A stretch of DNA of 29,743 nt from the IMG/VR virus record IMGVR_UViG_3300031938_000019, positions 1 through 29,743 of that record. One strand, given 5' to 3'. Below the pieces are notes generated by a model. That model did not search any database, was not told where the DNA came from, and saw nothing but the letters and a program-made list of their open reading frames with translations. Source of the DNA: a virus. Taxonomy: Duplodnaviria > Caudoviricetes. The position numbers and the translations under genes were made by a program. Every line of letters begins with the position of its first letter. Within the stretch, counting starts at the first letter, position 1. Of the stretch, positions 1 through 29,743 are shown in pieces.

Positions 1-7
1 CTCCCCC

Positions 8-328
8 ATGAGCGACGTGCCGCAGTGGACCTTGGCCGACCGGCTGAGGAAGATCCGCCGCGATCGACACCTCACCCAGGAGCAGATCGCCCGCGAGCTA
101 GGCATCAAGGGAGTCACGTGGTCCGCGTGGGAAGCCGGTCGCACCCGGCCGCATGACGTGGTCGAGCTGGCCGGGCTGATCGAGCAGCGGTTCGGCGTGC
201 CGGCGGCCTGGACGCTCGGCGTGCTGAACCAGTCGACTCCCGCGCCGCGCAAGGCCGTGGACAACGGCACGGTCCAGTGGGGGCGCCGTCAGAGTGACTA
301 CATGAGCGCGCGCATGGCGACGGCCTAG
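8..328 (+). CDS. XRE-family HTH protein, probable immunity repressor
   Basis: PQWTLADRLRKIRRDRHLTQEQIARELGIKGVTWSAWEAGRTRP is a canonical HTH_XRE; oriented opposite to virion genes. Confidence 0.85.
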   Translation: MSDVPQWTLADRLRKIRRDRHLTQEQIARELGIKGVTWSAWEAGRTRPHDVVELAGLIEQRFGVPAAWTLGVLNQSTPAPRKAVDNGTVQWGRRQSDYMSARMATA

Positions 329-363
329 ACCCCTAGCTTCCGCCCGTAACCCCGGCGGACGAG

Positions 364-398
364 CGGCCCCCGCCTCCCTGACGAGGTGGGGGCCGTTT
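364..398 (+). terminator. Intrinsic terminator after repressor
   Basis: 13-bp stem CGGCCCCCGCCTC/GAGGTGGGGGCCG (one G-U) followed by TTT. Confidence 0.7.
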
Positions 399-418
399 CG
401 CGTGCCCGGAAACTTCTT

Positions 419-464
419 CCGTAGCGCGCTTGACACTATCCCCGTAGCGCGCTACATTTCTCCC
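419..464 (+). promoter_or_regulatory. SigA-type promoter with two overlapping operator copies; leaderless
   Basis: TTGACA 430-435, 17 nt, TACATT 453-458, ATG at 465; palindrome GTAGCGCGCTAC 444-455 and near-copy GTAGCGCGCTTG 421-432. Confidence 0.85.
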
Positions 465-686
465 ATGACCACGACGCAGAGCATCGAGACCGCCCGCACC
501 GCCAAGGCCGCCGCAGTCGCAGCGCTCGCCAAGGCCGCCCCCCGCACCAAGAAGGCCGCTCTCCTCGCCGTCGAGGACGCCGACATGAACCTGAACATCG
601 CCATCCGCCAGCACGAGCAGGCCGTGCGCGCCGCCAACCCCACCGCCACCGAGGCTGAGATTCAGCAGATCGTGCGGGCCGCCTGA
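465..686 (+). CDS. Hypothetical Ala-rich helical protein (73 aa)
   Basis: ATG 6 nt after -10 box; GC3-rich codons; TGATG coupling to next gene. Confidence 0.8.
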   Translation: MTTTQSIETARTAKAAAVAALAKAAPRTKKAALLAVEDADMNLNIAIRQHEQAVRAANPTATEAEIQQIVRAA

Positions 687-868
687 TGGCCACGCAGGCG
701 ACCGCGGACCTGCTGCGGCACTACCGCGAGATGGTGAAGACGACGGAGCGGCAGCTCGCCCGCGACATCCATGAGGACATCGCGGCCGGGAAGCCGGTCA
801 CGCAGATTGCCAAGGACGCCGGCCTCAGCCGGGAGCGCATCTACCAGATCAGGGACGGACGACGATGA
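686..868 (+). CDS. Small HTH DNA-binding protein
   Basis: GKPVTQIAKDAGLSRERIYQI HTH motif. Confidence 0.85.
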   Translation: MATQATADLLRHYREMVKTTERQLARDIHEDIAAGKPVTQIAKDAGLSRERIYQIRDGRR

Positions 869-1035
869 GCGACAAGAAGCCCAACGCGGGCGAGGAGCTG
901 GACGCGATCATGCGCGACCTGGACGCGACGACGAAGGCGTGGGCCGCTGCCGGGCACGAGTACGACGGCCCGGAGGCTGAGGCGCGCGAGGCCGTGTTCG
1001 CCCGTCTCAAGGCGTGGAACAAGGCGCGGTCGTGA
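865..1035 (+). CDS. Hypothetical protein (56 aa, MSDKKPNAGEELDAIM...AWNKARS), not in ORF track
   Basis: ATGA overlap upstream, GTGA overlap downstream, GC3-rich codons. Confidence 0.75.
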   Translation: MSDKKPNAGEELDAIMRDLDATTKAWAAAGHEYDGPEAEAREAVFARLKAWNKARS

Positions 1036-1316
1036 AGCCGCATCCCGAGCTGCCGGACCCGGGCAACGGGCGCCGCTGGGGCTGGGAGCAGATCGCCACG
1101 AACCCGATGCGACCGCGGTCGAAGACGTGGTTCGCAACGCTGTTCTCCCGACAGGGGCACGTGCTCGGCTACATCGGCGAATACCCGGAGTACGGGTGGA
1201 GCGGCACGATCAAGACCAGGCGCAAGACGGTAGGCGCTGGCCTCGTGCCGGGCGCGTGGGGCTCGGCCGAGGTCGCCGCCGAGATGCTGCTCCGACGACT
1301 CAGGGACAAGCGATGA
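1032..1316 (+). CDS. Hypothetical Trp/Gly-rich protein
   Basis: GTG start in GTGA overlap; ATGA overlap with next gene. Confidence 0.7.
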   Translation: MKPHPELPDPGNGRRWGWEQIATNPMRPRSKTWFATLFSRQGHVLGYIGEYPEYGWSGTIKTRRKTVGAGLVPGAWGSAEVAAEMLLRRLRDKR

Positions 1317-1564
1317 CCGAGCTGACGTTCTGCCACGAGGGGGAGTCGCGGCCGGTTGAGGTCGGCACTCCGGTGTACGACAGTGACGGTCAACTGGTCG
1401 CCCGTGTGACCGCCGTTGACCCGGACGGCACGATCACGATCGGCGCTCCCTCAACGTGGTGCGCGTGCGGGCACGTCGAGGACGACCACGACCCCGACGA
1501 CGGCTGTGGCGCGTGCGCTATGGCGATGGTCGGCCCGTGCCACACCTTCCGGCCGCAGTCGTGA
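1313..1564 (+). CDS. Hypothetical protein with C-terminal Cys/His cluster
   Basis: MTELTFCHEG...CACGHVEDDH...CGAC...C; 4-nt overlaps both sides. Confidence 0.7.
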   Translation: MTELTFCHEGESRPVEVGTPVYDSDGQLVARVTAVDPDGTITIGAPSTWCACGHVEDDHDPDDGCGACAMAMVGPCHTFRPQS

Positions 1565-1761
1565 GCGACGTCCGCCCGTGGTACGCCTGCACGGGCGACC
1601 CGTGCACCTGCCCTAAGCCGGTGTCGATCGACTACCGGGTGGCGAAGCTCGAGCGCATCCGGGAGTTCGTGGACGGCTTCGCGGAGCGCGGTGGGGGCAA
1701 GGTGTCGGCCACCGACGAGTTGTGGATCATGTCGATCCGCCGACTGTTGGACGAGCCGTGA
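1561..1761 (+). CDS. Hypothetical protein (66 aa)
   Basis: VSDVRPWYACTGDPCTCPKP...; GTGA overlaps both sides. Confidence 0.65.
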   Translation: MSDVRPWYACTGDPCTCPKPVSIDYRVAKLERIREFVDGFAERGGGKVSATDELWIMSIRRLLDEP

Positions 1762-1910
1762 GCGGCTGCTACACGTGCGGCGGTGGCATGGGCAGGCACG
1801 ACCCGATCGCGCACGACCAAGGGGAACCCTGCGAGCACGAGTGGATTGAGCAGGGCGGCCCGGGTGACGAGTGGCGCGAGTGCGACCTCTGCGGGCTGAT
1901 CGAGGACTGA
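1758..1910 (+). CDS. Small Cys/His-rich (Zn-finger-like) protein (50 aa)
   Basis: CYTC...H...H; CEHEW...ECDLCG; GTGA overlap. Confidence 0.65.
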   Translation: MSGCYTCGGGMGRHDPIAHDQGEPCEHEWIEQGGPGDEWRECDLCGLIED

Positions 1911-1957
1911 TCTAGCCACGGCGCGTCGCCCCTGACCCGGCGGCCCGCCGTGGTAGA
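1911..1957 (+). terminator. Long hairpin immediately after operon stop (possible terminator/boundary)
   Basis: TCTA(G)CCACGGCG...CGCCGTGGTAGA with inner GTCGCC/GGCGGC; no U-tract. Confidence 0.4.
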
Positions 1958-1969
1958 CAACCCCTTAGA

Positions 1970-2490
1970 CAGCGCTGAGGCCGGACCCGTGTAGGAGCGG
2001 AATCCGGCCTCCCCGAAAGGGAGCGGCGCTGGCGGAGGGCGAGTCACACCGCGCGGCTACTGCTGTTCGGGCGCACCACGAGTGTGCCTCATGTTGCTGC
2101 GATTGTCAGCACGAACCTCCGCACCGGGCGTCCCAGGGGCAGCCGTCCAAGGTTCTGGTCCTCCTCCGACTTGTCACCGGAGGTCGCCCGTCAGATGGGC
2201 AACTCAGACGTCTGCGCTTGACGAGGGCGTCGCGCGGGCTGGCGTACAGCGGTTGGGTTCCGGGTCTTCCGTGCTCACCTACTGGTGCACGTTGCTCTTG
2301 GCCTACGGCGGGTGACCGCGCGGGTTCGTTGCCTTGATGCCTCGGAGCGGAGCGGAGAGGCGGCAAGGCGCCGCTGGGGGTCCGGGGCGCGCGTGCGCCC
2401 TGGGTAGAAAGAAGGCACGCGCGGAGCGCGTACCTCAGGGGGAGCGCTGGCAGCGATGTTCGCACGCGGGTCTGACAGTTTCAGATCGCG
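1970..2490 (+). ncRNA. Putative large structured ncRNA or structured replication origin, family unknown
   Basis: No credible ORF; more than a dozen consecutive or nested helices, GAAA tetraloop, G-U pairs on + strand. Confidence 0.55.
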
Positions 2491-2502
2491 GCGCGTCCTG
2501 TG

Positions 2503-2538
2503 TTGCGTTTGTAGCACGCACTGTCATACAGTCAGGCC
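2503..2538 (+). promoter_or_regulatory. Leaderless promoter with inverted-repeat operator for RHH gene
   Basis: TTGCGT 2503-2508, 18 nt, TACAGT 2527-2532, ATG 2539; ACTGT-CAT-ACAGT 2520-2532 overlaps -10. Confidence 0.65.
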
Positions 2539-2706
2539 ATGCCAGAGACGCCAGCCCGGTCGATCCGGATCCCCGATGAGGTGTGGATTCCCGCCCTCGA
2601 CACAGCACTGAGACGGGGCGAGAAGGTCCCGCAGATCGTCACGGAAGCCCTCCGCCGCTACGTGAAGCGGCACATGTCAGACCTGCCTGCTAAGGAGCAA
2701 TCGTGA
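2539..2706 (+). CDS. Ribbon-helix-helix DNA-binding protein (55 aa), not in ORF track
   Basis: MPETPARSIRIPDEVWIPALDTALRRGEKVPQIVTEALRRYVKRH fits the RHH (CopG/Arc-like) pattern. Confidence 0.85.
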   Translation: MPETPARSIRIPDEVWIPALDTALRRGEKVPQIVTEALRRYVKRHMSDLPAKEQS

Positions 2707-2903
2707 CCACCGGAGAGATCGCCAACCCCTACACGATCCGGTGCCCGCTCCGCCACTGCGAGGCAGCCACCGTCGTCGTGCGGAACGCGCAGGCGCCGAC
2801 CGTAGCCGAGAACGCGGCCTACCTCGCACACCTCGCCACCCACCGAGACAAGTTCTTCGAGCTGTACGTGATGGCAAAGGTCGCCTCTGAGGGCGCACGG
2901 TGA
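2703..2903 (+). CDS. Hypothetical protein, possible C2H2-like Zn site
   Basis: AAGGAG RBS, GTGA overlap; CPLRHC...HLATH. Confidence 0.7.
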   Translation: MTTGEIANPYTIRCPLRHCEAATVVVRNAQAPTVAENAAYLAHLATHRDKFFELYVMAKVASEGAR

Positions 2904-3181
2904 CCGCCAGCCAGCGAGCCCGCACGTTCGACCTGCCGCCGTCGGTGGTCGACCACCTCACCCCCGCCGACCGCACGTGGCTGTGGCTCCCGTCGCTGCC
3001 GCTGTCCGCGCACGACGAGCTGAACGCCCGCGACCAGCTCGACGCCTGGGACGCGCTCGCCGGCCGTCTGCTGCGGGGCGCCATGTTCGGTGACGGTGGG
3101 CGCGGGCTGCGGAAGTGTGCCGAGGCGGTGGCTGCGGTCGCTGAGGACCTGAACGTGTACCTGGACGGGCCAAGGCTGTAG
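2900..3181 (+). CDS. Hypothetical protein (93 aa)
   Basis: GTGA overlap; ends just before terminator. Confidence 0.7.
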   Translation: MTASQRARTFDLPPSVVDHLTPADRTWLWLPSLPLSAHDELNARDQLDAWDALAGRLLRGAMFGDGGRGLRKCAEAVAAVAEDLNVYLDGPRL

Positions 3182-3185
3182 AACG

Positions 3186-3227
3186 CAGAAAGGCGCCCCA
3201 CCCGCCCGGTGTGGGCAGGTGGGGCGC
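3186..3227 (-). terminator. Terminator between convergent operons
   Basis: GCGCCCCACC...GGTGGGGCGC stem (3193-3227) followed on minus strand by CTTTCTG. Confidence 0.75.
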
Positions 3228-3258
3228 TGGCGGTGCGGGGTGTGGTCGAGTCGCCGCC

Positions 3259-5112
3259 TTAGAAGCCCAACAGCAGGGGCAGGCGGAACTGAGACGCCGT
3301 CACCGAGGGGGTGGTGGACGGCAGTGGATGCTGACTGGACCCCTGGTAACTCTGAGCCGCAAACAGCGTGCCGGCGGGACCACTGAGGCCGGTGAAGGCG
3401 GCGGTCGTGTTGTCGCACGACATCGCAAGGAAGTCTCCCGGCTCCACGGTGACGGTCTGCCCGAGGGAGATGTCCGCGGTGCCGACCGCCGGGCAAGCCA
3501 CGGTTGCCGCAGCCAGTTGCGTCCCGGGGACGGCGGCCAGTCCGTTGCCGGACCGGCGGTAGACGCCCACCGAGATGTTCCCGGACGAAGTGGTCACGGC
3601 GAGCCGGATGCTGCTGACAGTGCCACCGCTCAACGCCCTAACGTAGCGGGCATCGTTGGCCGCACCCCAGGCGACGGCCAAGGTGGGGGTGTTGAGCGCC
3701 GTCGTGACGAAGCCGAACTGCAGCGCGTCGCGGTGGACGTGTGCGGCCTGGTCGACCCAGTTCGTGCCGTCGTAGACGAACTGGTATTCGGTGCGGCTGT
3801 TGGGGGTGACATTGATCGGACGGGTGGTGATGAACGCCGAGTTGAAGGTCACCTGCCGTCCGCCGGTGGCGTCCTGGATGAGATCCAGGGCCAGCCGCTG
3901 CCCGACGTGCTGCTCGATGGGCTTGCTGATCGCCACGTCCCCGGTGAGCGTCATCCGCTGGACGCCGCCGAGGTATGCGTTCGGTGTCCAGGATGCCGTG
4001 TACGTGTTGAGGTGCAGCCCGTTCGCGTTGCCGATCTGGATGTCGTTGTCCACGGCACTCTGCGCGGTGGGCGACAGGCGGGCGAGGCGGTGGCTCGCCG
4101 CAGTGAGGATTATCCGGTTCCCGGTGATACCGCTCGTACTGGTGCCCGAGAAGGAGATGGCCCATGCCTGATCGGGGCTGCCGCTGACGCTGCGGTCCAT
4201 CGCGGTGCCGATCACCGTGTTGTTGCTGGCGTTGTTGCCGAAGAAGAAGCCGGCCTTGTCCAGCCCGGTGGTGGCGTGCAGCCGGTTGTTCGAGTCGGCG
4301 GTGCATCCGGCGAGGGTGTTGAGGTTCGACGTGATGGCGAAGCCGCTGCCGTAGTTGTCCTGCGCCTCACAGCCGGCCAGCTCCGTGCGGTCGGCGTTGA
4401 TCGAGAACCCGTTGGCCCCAGTGTAGTCCAGTCGCCCGCTGTACCAGGTCTTGCACCCGATGAACTGGTTGTTCGACGAGTTGACCTGGATGCCGTCGAG
4501 CCCGTTGTCGCCGGCCACACAGGCGGTGTACCGGCTGTCCGGACAGTTGACGTTGAAGCCCCGGCCGTCGTTGAGCCAGCAGTAGATGTTGGTCAGGTGG
4601 TTCTCGCCGCGGCCACTGATGTAGAAGCCGTCGGTGAGAAACCCCGTGATGTAGAGGTCGAGGAAGCGGTGGTTCGGGTCGTGCTGCCCTAGCGTGTTGG
4701 CGCCGAACTGCGCGGAGGCGTCGGTGCTGCCGACGTAGCGGATCCCGGAACTGCTGCCGGTCTGGTTGGCCTTGTTGCCGTCGAGGGTGAGGAAGCGGAG
4801 TGCAGTCTCCCCGACGGTGAGCGAGTCGAGCACGAACATGTCCGTGTTCGTGCTGGCCTTTAGGGTGAGCCGGGAGTGTCGGCCGACCCCTTCGACGGTG
4901 ACCCGGGACTTCATCCGCAACTGGCCGACGACGTACTGGCCGGCGGGGACAAACACGATCCCGCCGCCGAAGCCCTGGCCGTTGGGACGGTTCGACGCAG
5001 CCGCGTCGATCGCCGCCTGGAAAGCGGCGGTGTCGTTCGTGGCGCCGTCCCCGACCGCGCCGAACTGGCGAACATCGAAGCTCGCTCGCGGCTGGGTAGC
5101 CCACTTGCTCAT
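3259..5112 (-). CDS. Tailspike/depolymerase-like protein with right-handed beta-helix
   Basis: FDVRQFGAVGDGATNDTAAFQAAIDAA and IVFVPAGQY (pectate-lyase-3-like N-terminus); Asn/Gly/Cys ladder repeats; QDATGGRQVTF...YDGTNW fibre-type domain. Confidence 0.85.
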   Translation of the reverse strand: MSKWATQPRASFDVRQFGAVGDGATNDTAAFQAAIDAAASNRPNGQGFGGGIVFVPAGQYVVGQLRMKSRVTVEGVGRHSRLTLKASTNTDMFVLDSLTVGETALRFLTLDGNKANQTGSSSGIRYVGSTDASAQFGANTLGQHDPNHRFLDLYITGFLTDGFYISGRGENHLTNIYCWLNDGRGFNVNCPDSRYTACVAGDNGLDGIQVNSSNNQFIGCKTWYSGRLDYTGANGFSINADRTELAGCEAQDNYGSGFAITSNLNTLAGCTADSNNRLHATTGLDKAGFFFGNNASNNTVIGTAMDRSVSGSPDQAWAISFSGTSTSGITGNRIILTAASHRLARLSPTAQSAVDNDIQIGNANGLHLNTYTASWTPNAYLGGVQRMTLTGDVAISKPIEQHVGQRLALDLIQDATGGRQVTFNSAFITTRPINVTPNSRTEYQFVYDGTNWVDQAAHVHRDALQFGFVTTALNTPTLAVAWGAANDARYVRALSGGTVSSIRLAVTTSSGNISVGVYRRSGNGLAAVPGTQLAAATVACPAVGTADISLGQTVTVEPGDFLAMSCDNTTAAFTGLSGPAGTLFAAQSYQGSSQHPLPSTTPSVTASQFRLPLLLGF

Positions 5113-6399: not shown

Positions 6400-6647
6400 A
6401 GGGCGGTGTGACGCCCCGCAGGCTCGACGACGTCCGTTGCTGAGGCGGTGCCGCTGTTGCCCAGCCGCAGCGACAGCAGCGAGGTCAGGAACGAGATCAC
6501 GGTGGCGAGTGCGGCGACGGACAGTGCGCGGCTCCAGTCCACGGACAGCAGGTCGGACACGCCCTGCACGGTGAGGACGGCGAGCAGGGCTTGAGCGAAG
6601 GTCTTCACGGCACGCTCGGCGGCGTCGATCCAGAACTGCTTGGTCAC
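6396..6647 (-). CDS. Holin, r1t-like
   Basis: KQFWIDAAERAVKTFAQALLA...VDW...AALATVISFLTSL; AAGGAG RBS. Confidence 0.9.
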   Translation of the reverse strand: MTKQFWIDAAERAVKTFAQALLAVLTVQGVSDLLSVDWSRALSVAALATVISFLTSLLSLRLGNSGTASATDVVEPAGRHTAL

Positions 6648-6964
6648 GGGTTCTCCTTCGGGTGGCGGGCCCGCCAGCGGCGGCACAGGCGGCGATACAG
6701 CCGCCCGGTCGGGTGGTAGAGCACGGCGAACAGCAGGAACGTCATCGCCGTACACAGGTAGACGTTGCGGCTACCGCCGGGCAGGTGCTGGCGGTAGATC
6801 TCCCAGGTGCCGTAGGTGACCGCGGCGTTGAGCACGACGATCCCCAGCCAGGCGAGTTGGTTCTCCGGCTTGTAGGTCAGCCAGCGGCGCCACTGGAATC
6901 CGCCGACGATGGCGACCAGCAGGCCGACGACGATCACGTAGATGCGCAGTGTCTCAACGGTCAC
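6644..6964 (-). CDS. Membrane protein (about 3 TM, Arg-rich C-tail)
   Basis: Three hydrophobic stretches; in lysis cassette. Confidence 0.7.
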   Translation of the reverse strand: MTVETLRIYVIVVGLLVAIVGGFQWRRWLTYKPENQLAWLGIVVLNAAVTYGTWEIYRQHLPGGSRNVYLCTAMTFLLFAVLYHPTGRLYRRLCRRWRARHPKENP

Positions 6965-7307
6965 CGCCGAGCCCCTTCGTGAGCTGGACCGGGAACGGGG
7001 GCGGGGGCGGAGGTTTGCCCTCCGCGATGTGATACCGAAGCGAGAGGATGTAGTCCGACGCGAGGCGGAACAGGCCCTCGGCGTTCTCCAGGCGGGTCTC
7101 GAGCCGCTGCTGCCGGTCCTCGAACTTCTGCGCCACCGCCGCGAAGTTCACGCGGTCGGCTGCCCGCTCCTCCTGCAGTTGATCGATGATCGTCTGCGTG
7201 TCGGAGGTCTTGTTCGCCTTCTTCGCGTTGCGCTGCACCAACCAAACACCGAGCAAGCCGAACGCGGGCGTGACGATCATGGCGACCGTCTGGCCCAGCC
7301 CGCTCAT
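6954..7307 (-). CDS. Single-TM coiled-coil protein with Pro-rich C-terminus (lysis accessory)
   Basis: N-terminal TM, QLQEER...RLETRLE heptads, GKPPPPPPFP; ATGA overlap. Confidence 0.75.
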   Translation of the reverse strand: MSGLGQTVAMIVTPAFGLLGVWLVQRNAKKANKTSDTQTIIDQLQEERAADRVNFAAVAQKFEDRQQRLETRLENAEGLFRLASDYILSLRYHIAEGKPPPPPPFPVQLTKGLGGDR

Positions 7308-8589: not shown

Positions 8590-8711
8590 CAGAGATCCCC
8601 GGCCGGGTCGTAGGGCACCGTGCGCGGCTCGTCCTCGGGCGGGGTGGCGGCGTCGGCCATGCGACCGTCGCGTTCCCGGTTCCAGTCGAGGTGGTCGTCG
8701 GGGGCGGTCAC
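8589..8711 (-). CDS. Small acidic protein (40 aa), not in ORF track
   Basis: VTAPDDHLDWNRERDG...YDPAGDL; GTGA and TGATG overlaps at both ends. Confidence 0.55.
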   Translation of the reverse strand: MTAPDDHLDWNRERDGRMADAATPPEDEPRTVPYDPAGDL

Positions 8712-9454
8712 AGGATCGCCGTCCAGTGCAGGGCGACGGCCAGAGTCGAGGCCACCGGGTTTCCGCCGCGCTCACGGATCCGCCAACTGAACCCGGTGGC
8801 CGTCACGTCGGTGAGGTTGACCATCGCGTCCACGTTCTGCCCGTCGGTGATCTCGACCGTGAGCTGCACCGACCGGGGCACTGCGGTGAACGCCGTCGGG
8901 AAGCTGGTGGTCCCAGTGCGGTTGTTCGACCCCGACGCGATCGACGTGGTCACGTTGTCGGCCTGCAGGAACACGGGCGGCGCGGACTCGCTCAGCCACA
9001 CCCGCTCGTCGACCACGCCGCTGAGCGCCGTGCCCGAGTTGGTGGGGACGAGGAAGGAGAACAGTGGCAGGTCGAACGTCGTGGAGTTGCGGGTGATGTC
9101 GGGGGCGACGGGGGTGGCGGCTGCCGTGCCCTGGATGACGACCGGCTTCACGTCGTGTGTGGCGGTGGAGCGGCGCAAAACGATCCGGTCCCTGCGGAAC
9201 AGCGTCGAGTTGGTGTTCGGCGCGACGGCCACCGCCGTCGTCGGGGCGCTGCGGGAGTAGCCAGCGCCGCCGACGTTGGCGTTGCCGACCGCCAGAGTGA
9301 TCGTCAGCCCCGATGTCGCCCAGGCCAGCGGGCCGAGGGTGGCCGCGTTCTGCGGGCCGCCGATGACACCCGAGGGTATGGCGGACGGCAGGTGGCGGTA
9401 CCACTCGACCTCGGCCCAGGGGCTGCCGTCGAACGGGCCCGAAACGTCAGGCAT
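8708..9454 (-). CDS. Minor tail protein with C-terminal H-lectin/gp53-like domain
   Basis: GPFDG, RRDRIVLR, DLPL baseplate motifs; SFPTAFTAVP...VTATGF. Confidence 0.8.
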   Translation of the reverse strand: MPDVSGPFDGSPWAEVEWYRHLPSAIPSGVIGGPQNAATLGPLAWATSGLTITLAVGNANVGGAGYSRSAPTTAVAVAPNTNSTLFRRDRIVLRRSTATHDVKPVVIQGTAAATPVAPDITRNSTTFDLPLFSFLVPTNSGTALSGVVDERVWLSESAPPVFLQADNVTTSIASGSNNRTGTTSFPTAFTAVPRSVQLTVEITDGQNVDAMVNLTDVTATGFSWRIRERGGNPVASTLAVALHWTAIL

Positions 9455-12693: not shown

Positions 12694-15600
12694 GCAGGAA
12701 CTCCAGATCCCGCTGCACGTCCCGCACCTTCGTTGCGATCACGCGGGCGTTCGACTCCGGCGCCGAGATGTTGATGACCTGCGACCGCGACTCGTTGCGC
12801 ACCACAGACCCTCCCCATCCGCTGCTGCCGGAGAACTCCCGGGACCGCATGTTCTGCTCACGCGGCACGACCCGCTCGCCCTGGTGTAGATAGGCCAGGC
12901 CGTCCTGCGGAACGAAGGGTGTCCCCGTCTTGTAGGAGGCGATGTGCGCGTGGTTGTAGTGCCCCGGCGCCATGAAGATCGTCTGGAAGCCAGCCGCCCG
13001 AGCCGCCGCAACCAACGGCGCCAACTCGTGCTGCTCCGCAGAGGACGTCCCCGCGCGGGTGTTGACGTCGATCGCTCTGCCTGAGTAGTGCTTCGAGCCG
13101 CGAACGTGCGCGCCAGGAGTGACGCCACCGAACGCGGGGTGCTCGGAGACGCGAGCGCCCATCGACTGCAGCCACCGGCCGAACCCGACCAGCGCTCCAG
13201 AGCCCAGCGTCGCCCTGCCGCTGTAACCCACGCCATCGGCGGGCTCGGCGTTCTTCATTGCGGACGCGACCGAAGCCATAGCCGCCTGAAGATGGGTGTC
13301 GTCGAACGAGACCGCGACCTGGGCTGGCGCGTACAGCGCTTCTCGGTGGTCGTTCGGATTGCCCTTCCAGCCAGCCGCGATAAGCCGGTTCCGCTCCTCC
13401 CATGAGATGTTGTTAGCGAGGACGTAACCGCCGTCCGCGTAGCCAGGCATCCCGACCAGCGAGCCGACAGCGCCAGGGCCGCCCAGGGCATTGACCCGGT
13501 GCTGCGGGACGACGAACTCGCCCGCGTGGACGATGCCGGCGGGCTGGTACTTGTGCCCCGCGCCCGTGTAGCCGCCCTCGGCGAACTCCTGCAAGCCGCC
13601 CTGCGGGTTGATGATGAACCGGCCGGCGGCCTTGACCTTGACCTCGACGGTCTTGCCGTGCAGGTTGTCGATCCCGCGCTGGGTGGCCGCGATCTTGTCG
13701 TTCGCCGCCTTCGTGTCGGCGTCGATCTTCGTCTGCCGCTCGGACGGGATGCCGAGGATCTGATTCGCAAGGTCCTTAGCGGCAGACTCGCTGATGCCCA
13801 TCTGCTGCGCGGACTTGATGAAGCTGGCGCGCAGCTCAGCGTCCTTGGCGCGCACCTTGTCAGTGCTGGCGCCCTGGTTGATCAGGGTGGCGATCAGGTC
13901 GTTTCCCGAGTCGCGGACGTTCAGCAGCACGTCGGCCGCCTTACGGCCAGCCTCCGACTGCAGGTTCAGCTTCCCGGACCCGTCGAGGACGTGGCCGTTC
14001 AGGTCCTTGACCGCGTCCTTGGCGTCCGCCACGGCCGACTGGAACGCCGATTCCACCTGGATCATGGAGACGTTGGCGCCGGTCAGGATGTCTAGCGAGA
14101 GCTTGAAGCTGTCGACGGCCTGCTTGGCGTCGTCGACGGAACTCTTGGCCTCGTCCATCGCCTTGCTGACGGCAACGGTCGCCTTGGTCGGCGTGGTGCC
14201 GAATTCCATCGAGTAGAAGTTCTGGAACAGGCGGTTGACTTCACTGACAGAGCCGGTCAGGTCGATGTTGTACTTGCTGGCGAGCGACAGCACTGCATCG
14301 CTGGTCATGCCGAACCGCTCAGCGAGAGCCCCCGCGCCGATGTCCACCTTGAGTTGTGCCGCCTCCGCCCGGTCCAGGGCGGCCTGGTACACGTCGAGCG
14401 AGTCGGCAACTCCCTGGTCGGTGAAGGGGCCCGACCAAAGCTTGTCCCAGATGCTGCGGTTCTCTATCTCGCCGCGGAGGTCAGTGACCTTGGACTTGAG
14501 CTGATCGATGGTGCCGTTGATGGCGTCGACCTGGGCACTGCCGCGCGCATCCGCGACCGCATCCCACATGCCGCGAACCTCGTCGCGGGCGTCTGAGGCG
14601 GCGGTAGCGAAGTCGATGATCCCGGTGATGGCGTAAGCGATTCCCGCCACGGCAGCAAGAGGCGCAGCGGTGGTCAGCAGGCTCATCAATGCGATCCGCG
14701 CAGTGCCAGCCGCGATCCCGAAGGCGGTGGTGGCGCCCGTAGCCATGCCCATCGACGTGACGGTGCTGACGATCCCGACAGCCACACGGGAGAACAGCGC
14801 GCCAAGTGGGCCGCGCAGGGCGACCCACCCGGCCATCGCCGCGAGGGCCACCTTGACCGGCCCGGGGAGGTCGGCGAACGCGCCCACGGCCCAGTTGACG
14901 CCATCGACGAGGCCGCCCAGCATCTGCACCAGATCGCGCAGCGGGCCTTGCGCGCCACTGCCGAGACTGATCATCAGCGTGTCGAAGGAGCCGCCCAGCC
15001 GCTCGAGGTCGCCCGAGAGGTTGTCGTTCAACGCCGCAGCCTGCTTCGCGGCGTAGCCCTGGTCGTTGACCTTGCTCGTCCAGTCGGCAATGCCCGCCGC
15101 GCCCTCCTTGTAGAGGACGTTCGCGGCGCGCACAGCATCCGAGCCGAAGATGGTGGCGAGGGCGCTATTCCGCTGCTCCTCGGTGAGCCCGCTGAGGTGG
15201 GCCTGCAACTGGCCGGCCATCTCGGAGACGCCGAGCATGTTGCCCTGGGCGTCGTACATGTTCAGGCCGAGGTCGGACATCAGCTCGGCGGCCTTGCCGC
15301 TCGGAGCCTGCAGCGCCTGCAGCATCGTCTTGAACGACGTGCCCGCATCCGAGCCGATGAGGCCGGCGGAGGCGAAGGCGGACAGAGTGCCCGTCGTCTC
15401 CTCGATCGACAGGCCGGCGGCGCTGGCGATCAGGCCCGACTGGTTCAGCGCGGCGCCGAGGTCGCCGACGGAGCCCATCGCCTTACCGGCGCCAGCGGCG
15501 AGCAGGTCTGCGACGTGGGGGAGCTGTGCACCGGACAGGCTGAACTGAGTCATCGCCACGCTGGCGATACCGGCCGCGTCCGCCACGTCGAGCTGGCCGG

Positions 15601-24860: not shown

Positions 24861-25080
24861 GCAGCTTCTCCTCGAATCGGCTCAGACCAGTCTTCGGCGC
24901 CTCGACCTTGACCCCGCCGCCGAGTTCGTCGATCTGCGCCAGCACATCCATCAGCCGCTGCGACAGGGAAGCCACATCGCGCATCGACGTGCACTCGTCC
25001 AGATCGGCCGCCAGACGCTCCCTGAGCGCCCGCAGAGCCGTAATCCGGTCCCCGGTAGCCGCTGCCTCAGACAGGCTCAC
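24820..25080 (-). CDS. terS: Terminase small subunit
   Basis: Helical 86 aa with ALRALRERLAADLD...RDVASLSQRL; GGGAGG RBS; directly before TerL. Confidence 0.75.
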   Translation of the reverse strand: MSLSEAAATGDRITALRALRERLAADLDECTSMRDVASLSQRLMDVLAQIDELGGGVKVEAPKTGLSRFEEKLRERSAASSGSRRP

Positions 25081-25600
25081 AGCGGGCCTCCCAGCGACGA
25101 CCAGTAACAGCGATGAACCGAGCCCGCGAGTAGAACTCGACGCCCGGTCGCTTGGTGCCAGGGCGCTCGGGGGCACGAACAAAGGCGTGCAGTCCGTCGC
25201 CGGACATGCTCACCTCGATGTAAAACGAGCTGAGGCGCCGCAGCACCTCGGCAGCTTCCGCCCCAACCAGTCGCCCATCAGCCAGGCAGTGGTCGAAGTC
25301 GTAGCAGGCCAGTCCGCCACCGAGCATCACGCCCAACCCGTTGCCGACGGTCGAACGCTTCACCTTGGCGAAGGTTGACCAGCTCTCCGGGTCCGTCGAG
25401 GACGCCGGGGCGCCTGTCGTGGTGATCGGCCGCTTGCCGTCCCGACGGGTCCAGCGATCCAGTTGCCGCATCTCGGCCGGGATCGTCTCGCGGTCGCGCG
25501 CCCGGTGTGCAGCGACCCGGCAGCGCGTCGAGCAGTACGTGGGGATGCGGCCACGCGCCGGCATCCGCATCGTCTCGCCGCAGGGGCAGGTCAGGAGCAC
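25067..25600 (-). CDS. Stand-alone AEP primase-polymerase domain with N-terminal Zn motif
   Basis: CPC...YCSTRC; IPAEM..W, STDPESWSTF, YDFDHC, EVSMSGDGLH, VEFYS..RFIAVTG. Confidence 0.85.
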   Translation of the reverse strand: MLLTCPCGETMRMPARGRIPTYCSTRCRVAAHRARDRETIPAEMRQLDRWTRRDGKRPITTTGAPASSTDPESWSTFAKVKRSTVGNGLGVMLGGGLACYDFDHCLADGRLVGAEAAEVLRRLSSFYIEVSMSGDGLHAFVRAPERPGTKRPGVEFYSRARFIAVTGRRWEARCEPV

Positions 25601-25859: not shown

Positions 25860-26123
25860 TCAGTCGAGCGAACCGGACCGCCGAACGATCGGCGCGAAGT
25901 CACGGTCACCCTTGATCAAGTTGCACCGCTTACCCCGGCTGTTCGGCACGTTGGTATGTGCCGGCCGAAGGTTGCTCGGGTGCTCAGTGCCGCCCTTTAT
26001 GAGTGGCACCACATGGTCAACACCATCGGCACCGTGCTCGCCGCAGATGTGGCAGACGTCGGAGGCGCGGAGGATGCGGGCGTTGCGTTCGGCTCGGGCT
26101 CGACCGCGGATGCGCTCGGTCAT
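25860..26123 (-). CDS. HNH endonuclease (terminase-associated type)
   Basis: CHICG...VDHVVPLIKGG...NLRPAH...CNLIKG. Confidence 0.9.
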   Translation of the reverse strand: MTERIRGRARAERNARILRASDVCHICGEHGADGVDHVVPLIKGGTEHPSNLRPAHTNVPNSRGKRCNLIKGDRDFAPIVRRSGSLD

Positions 26124-26302
26124 CAGCGCGCCGCGTACCTGCGCTCGAGCAGCCGGTTGACCCGCGCCTCGGCGTACACCGCAGCCCGTTGCGTGTCTGC
26201 GTTGGGCGAGTGGTCGAAGTCCTGCCGCGCGTCGAGCAGTTCGAGCCACGCCTCAGCGATGTCCTTGTCGATGCCAGCGAGGGGCGTCAGCGTCTCAGCC
26301 AT
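26123..26302 (-). CDS. Hypothetical protein (59 aa), not in ORF track
   Basis: MAETLTPLAGIDKDIAEAW...RRYAAR; GAGGGG RBS; TGATG coupling to HNH. Confidence 0.7.
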   Translation of the reverse strand: MAETLTPLAGIDKDIAEAWLELLDARQDFDHSPNADTQRAAVYAEARVNRLLERRYAAR

Positions 26303-26399: not shown

Positions 26400-26528
26400 C
26401 GCCGCTCCCCGCTTCAACAGGTTTAGCGCGGTTTATCGCCAGGAGGTAAATCCCGGAGATCGGTGCCGGGCCAGCCGTCCCATCACGCACGCACCAGGCG
26501 TCGGCCAAGGGACGGGCCGTGGAATGCG

Positions 26529-26561
26529 CGAGAGCCCCGACCGATTGGGCCGGGGCTCTCG
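26529..26561 (-). terminator. Strong hairpin in presumed late leader
   Basis: CGAGAGCCCCG/CGGGGCTCTCG 11-bp stem; weak U-tract. Confidence 0.5.
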
Positions 26562-26623
26562 TCTGAACTTGGGGTCGCCTCGTCAGCGACACCTCGCATA
26601 CTCAGGCATCAGGTCACCCTCTG

Positions 26624-27352
26624 TCAACTAGCACGCACATCGTGTCGCGCCGTGTCGTCTCGCAGCACGTCGAGCAGATCACCGAGACGCAACCGCTTGA
26701 CCCCATCGTGCGATGGGCGTACTGCGATGCGCTTGCGGTCGAGGTAGTTGCGGATCCGCTGGTGCCCGACCTTGATGCCGCCGACCTCGCCGACGTACTG
26801 CGACGCCTCGCGCGGGGTGACGATCATGTCGGCAGCCCGCAGCAGCAGCCACGCCCGACGCTCGGCCACGTTGTGGGTGACCTCGCACTGTGTGCACGTG
26901 GCCTGATGTGCACCGGCTCGAGCCCACACCTCGGCATGGCAGGTGAGGCCGTCCTCCTCGTACATGCACTGGCCGAGGTACTCGCGCTCCTGCATCCGGT
27001 CGATGGCCCGGTACGCAGCCCGGACCACATGCCCGATGCCGGTCACGATCTCGGCCGCCTTCGGGTGCCGGCGGATGGCGGTGATGTCGTCGCCCCACAG
27101 CGCCAGCTCGACCAGCAGGGAGTCGCGGACGGCGACCACGCCCCAGTTGATGGGCGACTTCTCGTGCGCGCTTCCCTTGCCTGCCTTGCCGCCAGTCGCC
27201 ACCCTTGCCTGCTTGCTGACCGCGACGTTGAGCTGGTCGATGAGCTGAGGCACGGCGGCGAGCATCGTCTCGACGGCGGCGGTGTCGTCGTGGCAGAGCA
27301 GCCCCTCGGGCTGGTGGCATCCGCAGGACGGGCAGATCATCGCGCTACTCAC
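26624..27352 (-). CDS. Zn-ribbon plus C-terminal HTH protein, probable late transcription regulator
   Basis: CPSC, LLCHDD, C..C/CTQC ribbons; VTPREAS...HQRIRNYLDRKRI...LRLGDLL; last gene before late operon (alternative start 27340). Confidence 0.7.
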   Translation of the reverse strand: MSSAMICPSCGCHQPEGLLCHDDTAAVETMLAAVPQLIDQLNVAVSKQARVATGGKAGKGSAHEKSPINWGVVAVRDSLLVELALWGDDITAIRRHPKAAEIVTGIGHVVRAAYRAIDRMQEREYLGQCMYEEDGLTCHAEVWARAGAHQATCTQCEVTHNVAERRAWLLLRAADMIVTPREASQYVGEVGGIKVGHQRIRNYLDRKRIAVRPSHDGVKRLRLGDLLDVLRDDTARHDVRAS

Positions 27353-27515
27353 TGTTCGGTCCCCGTTCGGTAGCGAAACGCACGTACTTGACCTGATCCA
27401 AATCCTTTGGATCGGTAGGCCAATACACGGGCAGCCCACGCTTGACCCGGTCGAGGATCTGCTGCACGTCACGGGGAGGCCAGCCCACGTGGTAGTGCGT
27501 GCGCTCGTCGCTCAC
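27345..27515 (-). CDS. Hypothetical protein (56 aa)
   Basis: GTGA overlap with protease stop; fills gap. Confidence 0.5.
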   Translation of the reverse strand: MSDERTHYHVGWPPRDVQQILDRVKRGLPVYWPTDPKDLDQVKYVRFATERGPNSE

Positions 27516-28186
27516 GCCTTGCGCCCGACCGGAACGGCCGCCTCGCCACCGGACTGGAACAGGATCGAGTCGAGGTCGGCTGGCGTGATGTAGCCGTTTC
27601 CGTTGGCGCCGTAGGACTTCGACCAGGAGTTGCGCCAGCGGTAGAACGGGCCCGCTCCTCGGTAGTTCGGCGAGTATCCGGTGATGACGAGGCAGTGGCC
27701 GCCGACGACATCCCCGGCCACGTTCACGCCACCGTAGCTGTCCGTGTCGTACATCCCCGAGCGCCATTCCACGCCGATGACGACGGGCCCGGTCTGCAGC
27801 GCGGCCCGCAGCTCCGAGAGATTGAACGCCCAGTTGAAGCCGCTGATCCAGCCGCGCTCGCGGGCGACCAACATGCCGGCCCGGACGCTGGTGCCGTTCT
27901 CGCGGGACACACCCTCGAACTCGTCGATCTGGGCGCAGCGGTCGAACACCGCCACGGCGAGCTGGTGGCCCGCCTCGGCGTTGGCGACCCGCCCACGAAC
28001 GGGGGAGGCGAGGTATTCACCGACGACTCCGTGGCCGACACAGGTCCCTTCTTGCCCCTGATCGAGAACCGTTCCGCCGGTCCACCAAATTGCCTGCTGG
28101 GTCAGATCGGCACCAGGGGCGGCCACCCGGTACTGCTTATTGCGCGGGTCAAGCCTTGGCACATAGTCGAGGATTCGGTTCGGCAT
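27512..28186 (-). CDS. Papain-like cysteine peptidase (C1-like)
   Basis: DQGQEGTCVG (Q, C), GGHCLVITGY (H), RNSW (N). Confidence 0.9.
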   Translation of the reverse strand: MPNRILDYVPRLDPRNKQYRVAAPGADLTQQAIWWTGGTVLDQGQEGTCVGHGVVGEYLASPVRGRVANAEAGHQLAVAVFDRCAQIDEFEGVSRENGTSVRAGMLVARERGWISGFNWAFNLSELRAALQTGPVVIGVEWRSGMYDTDSYGGVNVAGDVVGGHCLVITGYSPNYRGAGPFYRWRNSWSKSYGANGNGYITPADLDSILFQSGGEAAVPVGRKA

Positions 28187-29741: not shown

Positions 29742-29743
29742 CC

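Follow-up and report, generated by a model that had tools for sequence, protein, structure and literature searches.

A two-hairpin, tRNA-like core shared by a non-coding element of a temperate phage and RNA-based prophage origins

Genomic setting

The sequence analysed here comes from a soil phage: a linear IMG/VR record, 29,743 bp long and an estimated 65% complete, the whole of which we call the window (record G000). Its minus strand carries terminase, portal, head, tail and lysis genes, reaching down to position 3259, where a tail spike gene lies (3259-5112, minus strand). A sister record (G001), near-identical to the window, reaches about 9.3 kb further left. There it encodes a MerR/Cro-like protein, whose gene diverges from that of the repressor (8-328), together with exonuclease VIII, a methylase and a replication initiation protein. 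This is the usual temperate layout, where the integrase is expected between the repressor gene and the last of the tail genes. Here the stretch between them has been sequenced completely, and it contains a promoter candidate, seven small genes, a non-coding element, an Arc-like gene and two further small genes (Table 1). G+C content and homologues point to an actinobacterial host.

Profile searches of the window record and G001 gave no match to tyrosine integrase (PF00589), serine resolvase (PF00239) or ParA (AAA_31), while 14/14, 12/14 and 14/14 control genomes, respectively, were positive. The far ends of the two records do not overlap, so a stretch of the lytic arm, between G001 position 1 and window position 29743, lies outside the ~39 kb to which the absence of integrase and ParA applies. 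The promoter candidate at 430-458 was the sole match of a promoter scan of positions 1-3400 (10/12 positions; shuffles 0.1±0.3). Within the same cassette we observed a terminator-like hairpin after the repressor (364-395) and a second small HTH gene (686-868, + strand). The Arc-like gene may encode a copy-number regulator or an autoregulator, and the palindrome over the -10 of its likely promoter (2521-2533) is a putative operator.

Elsewhere in the window, a stand-alone Prim-Pol domain protein of 177 aa is encoded directly upstream of the small terminase gene (25067-25600, minus strand) and a papain-like cysteine peptidase gene lies in the lytic arm (27512-28186, minus strand). One small phage has multiple genes for endonucleases, among them endonuclease VII and HNH types (L386:4087-4881, 6581-7249, 8692-9060; window 25860-26249).

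Table 1. Features in and around the non-coding element; positions refer to the window unless another record is named.
Feature	Position	Strand	Basis or remark
Immunity-repressor-like HTH gene	8-328	+	phrog_2328, E 9.7e-13
MerR/Cro-like gene, divergent from repressor	just left of window; L002:136-411	-	PF00376
Sigma-70-type promoter candidate	430-458	+	precedes small-gene run 465-1910 leading into element
Possible extended -10-like motif, last base off consensus	1950-1958	+	~10 nt before first helix; read from sequence
5' domain: helix 1970-77/2024-31 around hairpin 1978-2010 and a GAAA-capped mini hairpin	1966-2036	+	z -3.8
Variable insert, three hairpins	2037-2150	+	replaced or skipped in some relatives
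Family core: 7-nt-loop hairpin (loop 2170-2176, anticodon-arm-like), short linker, 4-bp hairpin 2186-2200 with 7-nt T-loop-like loop	2163-2203	+	HMM, covariation
Third hairpin 2207-2231 plus conserved block 2235-2266, common to 1.2-kb circle L130	2207-2266	+	alignment A4; metagenome pattern match
Variable arm, conserved middle 2333-2374, hairpin 2382-2403	2267-2401	+	X13, X5 comparison
Purine-rich segment with hairpin 2417-31	2398-2455	+	resembles second cluster A origin block, not significantly (HMM E 5.4, rank 2 in window)
3' hairpins; weak terminator-like site 2487-2502	2470-2502	+	pair probability 0.92
Likely leaderless promoter of next gene, palindrome 2521-2533 over its -10	2504-2533	+	read from sequence
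Arc-like ribbon-helix-helix gene	2539-2706	+	phrog_6506, E 3.8e-8
Inverted repeat I19, 15-nt arms, 93% complementary	3193-3227		ends rightward cassette, meets convergent tail genes

Folding and conservation

An earlier note on this DNA had described the region as its largest gene-free gap and as non-coding, and both descriptions hold: the gap between called genes (1911-2538) measures 628 bp against 354 for the next largest, windows starting at 1876-2476 have negative codon log-odds in each of the six frames, and relatives carry non-triplet indels (1 and 2 nt) in the element. The helices it had listed were also found where claimed (14/14 pairs checked). Its claim that the element is almost fully base-paired does not survive comparison with chance, the paired fraction being 0.705 against 0.70±0.02 in 30 shuffles. 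Folded against shuffles, as the note had proposed for both strands, the whole region did not stand out on the + strand (z -1.46; 7/100 shuffles equally good) and did so only to a degree on the - strand (z -2.52; 2/100). G-U pairs, which had been taken as a sign of selection on the + strand, number 25 against 26.8±4.9 in shuffles, a chance-level count because that strand is G/T-rich. Locally, only the 5' domain stands out: z fell below -4 on the + strand in just two of 35 sliding 120-nt windows, 1900-2019 (z -4.5) and 1940-2059 (z -4.4). Validated prophage origins gave z of -3.3, -1.9 and -3.6 in the same test, and a modest z is therefore compatible with function.

Individual helices fared differently. 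Those at 2163-83 and 2186-2200 are backed by covariation across the family described below, and that at 2207-31 by a hairpin of different sequence at the equivalent place in the circle L130. For the junction at 1970-2031 the placement of the helices was borne out, and the changes listed in relatives are confined to a loop (1990-1997). Helix 2231-37/2316-22 has a pair probability of 0.00 and is broken on one side in an X13 relative (changes at 2318, 2320 and 2321; none listed in 2231-37); in helix 2331-36/2364-69 the X13 change at 2332 removes one pair. We also dropped a possible long-range pairing between the 5' end and 2260-66, because X13 keeps 2260-66 although it differs before 1946. At E<=5 the Rfam search called for by the note returned no match in the region, and ARAGORN found 0 tRNA genes in the window. 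The motif at 1950-1958 is a candidate for the element's own promoter and is absent from the promoter-scan calls for 1-3400. The terminator scan found 3 sites against 1.4±1.0 by chance.

Contigs from four soil runs keep 1938/1946-2036 (in X5, X6 and X13 contigs) and 2138/2151-2437, and the part between is sometimes replaced or skipped: position 2036 is joined to 2138 in X5 and X6, and to 2151 with 111 other letters between in X13. Hairpin 2382-2403 has a compensatory change in X5 (2388/2397). An X13 contig (record 1) spans 2151-2435. Its listed changes, 30 in all, leave 2151-2266, 2333-2374 and 2402-2435 untouched; 18 substitutions and four indels among them fall in 2267-2332, and the counts rest on 23 of its 25 substitutions listed. 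Its core, 2163-2203, is unchanged. In a second X13 contig the stem at 2163-2183 is fully paired and bears a different 7-nt loop.

This pattern bears on the plainest explanation, that the element is no more than a spacer, decayed or carried along passively, and owes its hairpins to 69% G+C. Folding, paired fraction and G-U count, all at shuffle level, are what such a spacer would give. The block 2151-2266, with 0 changes in 116 nt against 30 in the other 169 nt of this one relative (p about 2e-7 for a uniform spread), and the family covariation of the core are not, and they make this explanation highly improbable. It is largely refuted for the core, and it may hold for 2037-2150 and 2267-2332.

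The conserved core

The real signal of the element is a core of ~45 nt (2163-2203), rather than overall pairing. BLAST of the element against phages gave short pieces only, of 25-37 nt, two of which turned out to be this core: weak matches at 2167-2207 to mycobacteriophage Refuge, ~290 bp upstream of parA on the reverse strand, and to an intergenic gap of Gordonia phage Coeur. In a full-length HMM of 8 origins, 2167-2203 ranked first in the window (E 0.005), and in a core HMM of 10 origin-type sequences, built without Refuge or the window, it scored E 7.2e-5, the next match having 0.68; these E-values are optimistic because the training sets came from a chain begun with a window hit, three of the 10 core rows deriving from a window-derived pattern and the others from BLAST seeded by a window hit. 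The three other conserved origin blocks (blocks 2-4) had no significant match in the window, the best within the element being E 5.4.

Compensatory changes were seen in 17 of 44 predicted pairs among the 10 origin-type sequences, both core stems included. A hand-picked alignment of 51 rows, chosen for having the hairpin and with the second stem fixed by the search pattern in all but five, had 91.7% of cells paired and 89 two-sided changes against 30.7±3.8 in shuffles. A 17-nt pattern retrieved 120 viral loci from ~80% of the collection scanned, in 98 unique contexts, 67 of which have a 7-nt-loop hairpin directly upstream (19.2±3.7 in 200 shuffles, maximum 31). An extended -10 motif lies 25-85 nt upstream in 31/67 contexts with the hairpin, in 6/31 without it and in 70/3350 background windows, many of the viral copies starting ~35-80 nt after the promoter motif. 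The family is RNA-like in both respects, the upstream hairpin and the enrichment of the -10 motif.

The core resembles part of a tRNA, with a 5-bp stem, a 7-nt loop starting C-U (C in 44/51 and U in 35/51 rows), a short linker and a second stem with a U-N-N-R-A loop, which we take to be akin to a T loop. Unlike in tRNA, the position equivalent to 37 is mostly C (37/51 rows), the second stem has 4 bp, and no acceptor stem or CCA was found; a cloverleaf with acceptor stem, a purine at 37 and a canonical T loop are thus not features of the core. Rfam had no relevant match in 20 loci carrying it.

Searches beyond these loci returned little. A degenerate core pattern is present in 71/301 bacterial genomes (a tally that includes one unpublished genome, which supports none of the conclusions here), and these copies are probably chance matches: 30 such loci scored at most 27 bits, against at least 41 for most true copies (31 for Coeur). 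No core-model match appeared among 150 candidates scored in each of five bacterial genomes, and none of 115 genome matches had the exact core pattern. Exact patterns run against viral contigs hit the sister record only. Eight metagenome matches comprised the phage itself (two), one homologue (L130) and five chance matches, and a pattern for the 5'-domain hairpin gave 121 loci, none homologous. Searches for homologues of the Arc-like protein and the repressor yielded no independent locus bearing the element.

Relation to cluster A prophage origins

The cluster A mycobacteriophages with parABS, such as Alma, LadyBird, Gladiator and RedRock, have a non-RepA origin, a Rep-less non-coding region of ~600 bp; fragments of this size suffice for replication, and deletion of 26463-26959 in Alma or 25900-26299 in LadyBird abolishes stable lysogeny (PMC7157519). 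The core lies at 26739-26791 in Alma and 26195-26247 in LadyBird, inside both deletions and on the strand reported to be transcribed (PMC7157519). The Refuge region matches 157 phage records, Alma, LadyBird and Gladiator among them. As far as the available part of PMC7157519 goes, no structure or conserved motif is given for RNA-based prophage origins. No relative of the Alma origin was found among plasmids. Near full-length relatives of the cluster A origin RNA occur outside parABS phages, in Daredevil (L376:2449-2860), L278, L307 and L365, the Daredevil copy between an HNH gene and the terminase genes.

The window element is like these origins in being a non-coding region of similar size (~600 bp) in the integrase slot of a temperate actinophage, in having the two-hairpin core, which points the same way as the reported RNA, and in belonging to a temperate phage for which no integrase was found in G000 and G001. 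It differs in that homology is restricted to ~40-50 nt, in the absence of the parABS that flanks the published non-RepA origins, and in lying in another phage architecture with its own lytic initiator. The Arc-like protein gave no BLASTP alignment with Alma ParB, and no short repeat array was found near its gene. Since whole-length similarity and parABS were looked for and neither was found, we set the element apart from the cluster A origin family.

The element occupies the integrase slot and carries the core of RNA origins, and therefore likely makes an RNA for plasmid-like copying. We propose that it is an RNA-primed origin through which this temperate phage persists as a plasmid rather than integrating, and we give this reading a probability of about one half. 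The earlier note had also arrived at an RNA-based origin; the core common to cluster A origins and a slot empty of integrase argue for it, while the reasons that the note itself had given, pairing and G-U bias, are at chance level. Transcription of the + strand, from about 1966 or by read-through from the 430-458 promoter, would yield an RNA of ~500-550 nt whose core would fold into an L-shaped tRNA-like unit. No RNA run was listed among 24 runs carrying the sequence, which counts neither for nor against transcription. By analogy with ColE1, the RNA might form an R-loop, its 3' end being processed by host enzymes and extended by host polymerase. The neighbouring Arc-like protein could control copy number, and lytic replication would proceed through the separate initiator protein in the left arm.

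The RNA II/RNA I replicon of ColE1 has a folded primer RNA of ~550 nt, hairpins with 7-nt tRNA-like loops and an adjacent gene for a small regulatory protein, and the element, as an RNA of ~550 nt proposed to act as primer, is like it on each of these points. The likeness does not extend to sequence, and the link to ColE1 suggested earlier found no backing in this respect: the region matched no Rfam family, RNA I/RNA II included (E<=5), and BLAST of the element against plasmids gave nothing beyond 65-nt chance pieces.

An RNA-primed origin is the reading that covers the slot and its missing integrase, the homology with origins that have been tested, and the circle with a single gene described below. 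Against it stand the shortness of the homology to validated origins (~40-50 nt), the absence of parABS, and the occurrence of the core in an integrating phage, at the right ends of A4 phages and near terminase genes. The functional origin of Et2Brutus, moreover, is without the core. That origin (L375) shares only the parA-proximal ~170 bp with the others, and because of this and the missing core it is probably a second, unrelated RNA origin.

Other occurrences of the core

A right-end non-coding region is common to 158 mycobacteriophage records of the Peaches/Kampy type, and in Kampy the core itself lies within it at 50704-50756 (L419:905-957), upstream of gene 88, where read coverage of the lytic transcriptome is reported to be highest (PMC4626039). 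The A4-type right-end region has the same core as prophage origins of other subclusters (L419, L253, L280, L284, L290, L316). Like the element, the right-end (Pleft) RNA of cluster A phages is ~500 nt long and non-coding; it is abundant (A4 Kampy, PMC4626039; L5 and D29, PMC5712189), and the A4 copies carry the core downstream of an early promoter. Unlike the element, it is a lytic RNA at the genome end. Part of the L5 right-end RNA could not be deleted (PMC5712189); this RNA has no match to the core model.

Coeur is an integrating phage that carries the core. It measures 16 kb, and the part of it examined contains no annotated replication gene. At 14981-15361 (L250:4950-5330) it has the core and further origin-like motifs overlapping annotated gene 23, a gene call that may be spurious. 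Among the viral loci retrieved by the 17-nt pattern, a large subfamily (L254, L297, L312, L321, L323 and others) consists of a promoter, the core, further hairpins and a C/A-rich tract, has a short conserved motif ~190-220 nt downstream and mostly points away from terminase genes.

The same core is thus present in contexts other than prophage origins, and a stand-alone phage ncRNA is therefore the main alternative. Such an RNA would be abundant, have no origin role here and work in trans, either in lysogeny or early in infection; its core might conceivably be a portable unit that aids folding or stability or serves as a decoy, for instance against host tRNA nucleases, or be a processing signal. 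The lytic coverage over the Kampy core, the position of many viral copies shortly after a promoter motif and near terminase genes, and the coexistence of integrase and core in Coeur all agree with it, and the short homology, the absent parABS and the integrating and lytic contexts favour a portable module. It leaves unexplained, however, the integrase missing from its slot and the circle L130, and the origins are the only core-bearing regions that have been genetically tested (PMC7157519). The C at the position equivalent to 37 also means that the first loop is not a true anticodon loop. We regard this alternative as possible but less likely; it would merge with the proposed origin if the copies in integrating and lytic contexts are lytic origins.

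The copy closest to window 2163-2266 that we found belongs to L130 (1-1275), a unit of 1,206 bp whose terminal repeat measures 69 nt and whose single ORF has ~222 aa. All seven homologues of its protein (7/7) lie on contigs of 1.15-1.4 kb (P0001-P0007), and no Rep gene is evident in L130 or this family. The protein has a predicted fold with pLDDT 78 and matches 11 unnamed viral-database entries; no PDB fold match was obtained, and the Atlas leads are weak.

Presence in so small a circle would also suit a signal acting as DNA, with hairpins in single-stranded DNA serving as a priming site or lagging-strand origin, or in packaging. A terminase gene lies within 2.5 kb at 25/36 hand-picked core loci (81 ORFs scanned, some loci near-duplicates), the stems fold on either strand, and the excess of G-U over A-C pairs in the first helix of the family is weak (15 against 8). 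The near-fixed distance of the promoter motif upstream speaks for RNA instead, as do the transcripts reported over the core-bearing regions of Alma and LadyBird (PMC7157519) and Kampy (PMC4626039), and, within the record of this phage, more than 20 kb separate the element from the terminase genes. We therefore consider a DNA-level signal unlikely.

In put-like antitermination or attenuation, a leader RNA modifies RNA polymerase. The element could be such a cis-acting leader for downstream genes, and a promoter indeed precedes the core, with co-directional genes ahead of it, in A4 phages and at many viral loci. The cluster A origin RNA, by contrast, runs opposite to all flanking genes, and in the window just three short genes lie downstream, with a likely promoter of their own, which makes a leader function very unlikely.

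Significance

That RNA provides origin function in cluster A is already known. For the structural core, its spread and the version without parABS we found no description in the literature, including the available parts of bioRxiv 2025.11.21.689395, PMC10986025, bioRxiv 143420, PMC7000223 and bioRxiv 2025.08.03.668216; the 10,006-candidate catalogue of PMC10690425 was covered in part (six supplementary files without a match), so the core may be catalogued there.

The existing Alma and LadyBird plasmids allow direct mutation of the covarying 45-nt core, which lies within both published deletions. The core also links RNA origins with the very abundant and so far unexplained ncRNA region of lytic infection, with elements near terminase genes in uncultured phages, and with very small circles bearing a single gene. 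Tentatively, the core may define an undescribed, widespread class of RNA-primed origins, comprising those of plasmid-state prophages without parABS, the cluster A origins, lytic origins near packaging sites in many tailed phages and Rep-less circles of ~1.2 kb. Were this so, the workings of such origins could be approached through structure for the first time, and the abundant right-end ncRNA of A4 phages would gain a function. If the window element replicates, RNA origins are not confined to cluster A and do not need parABS; protein-free vector origins for actinobacteria might then be built from them.
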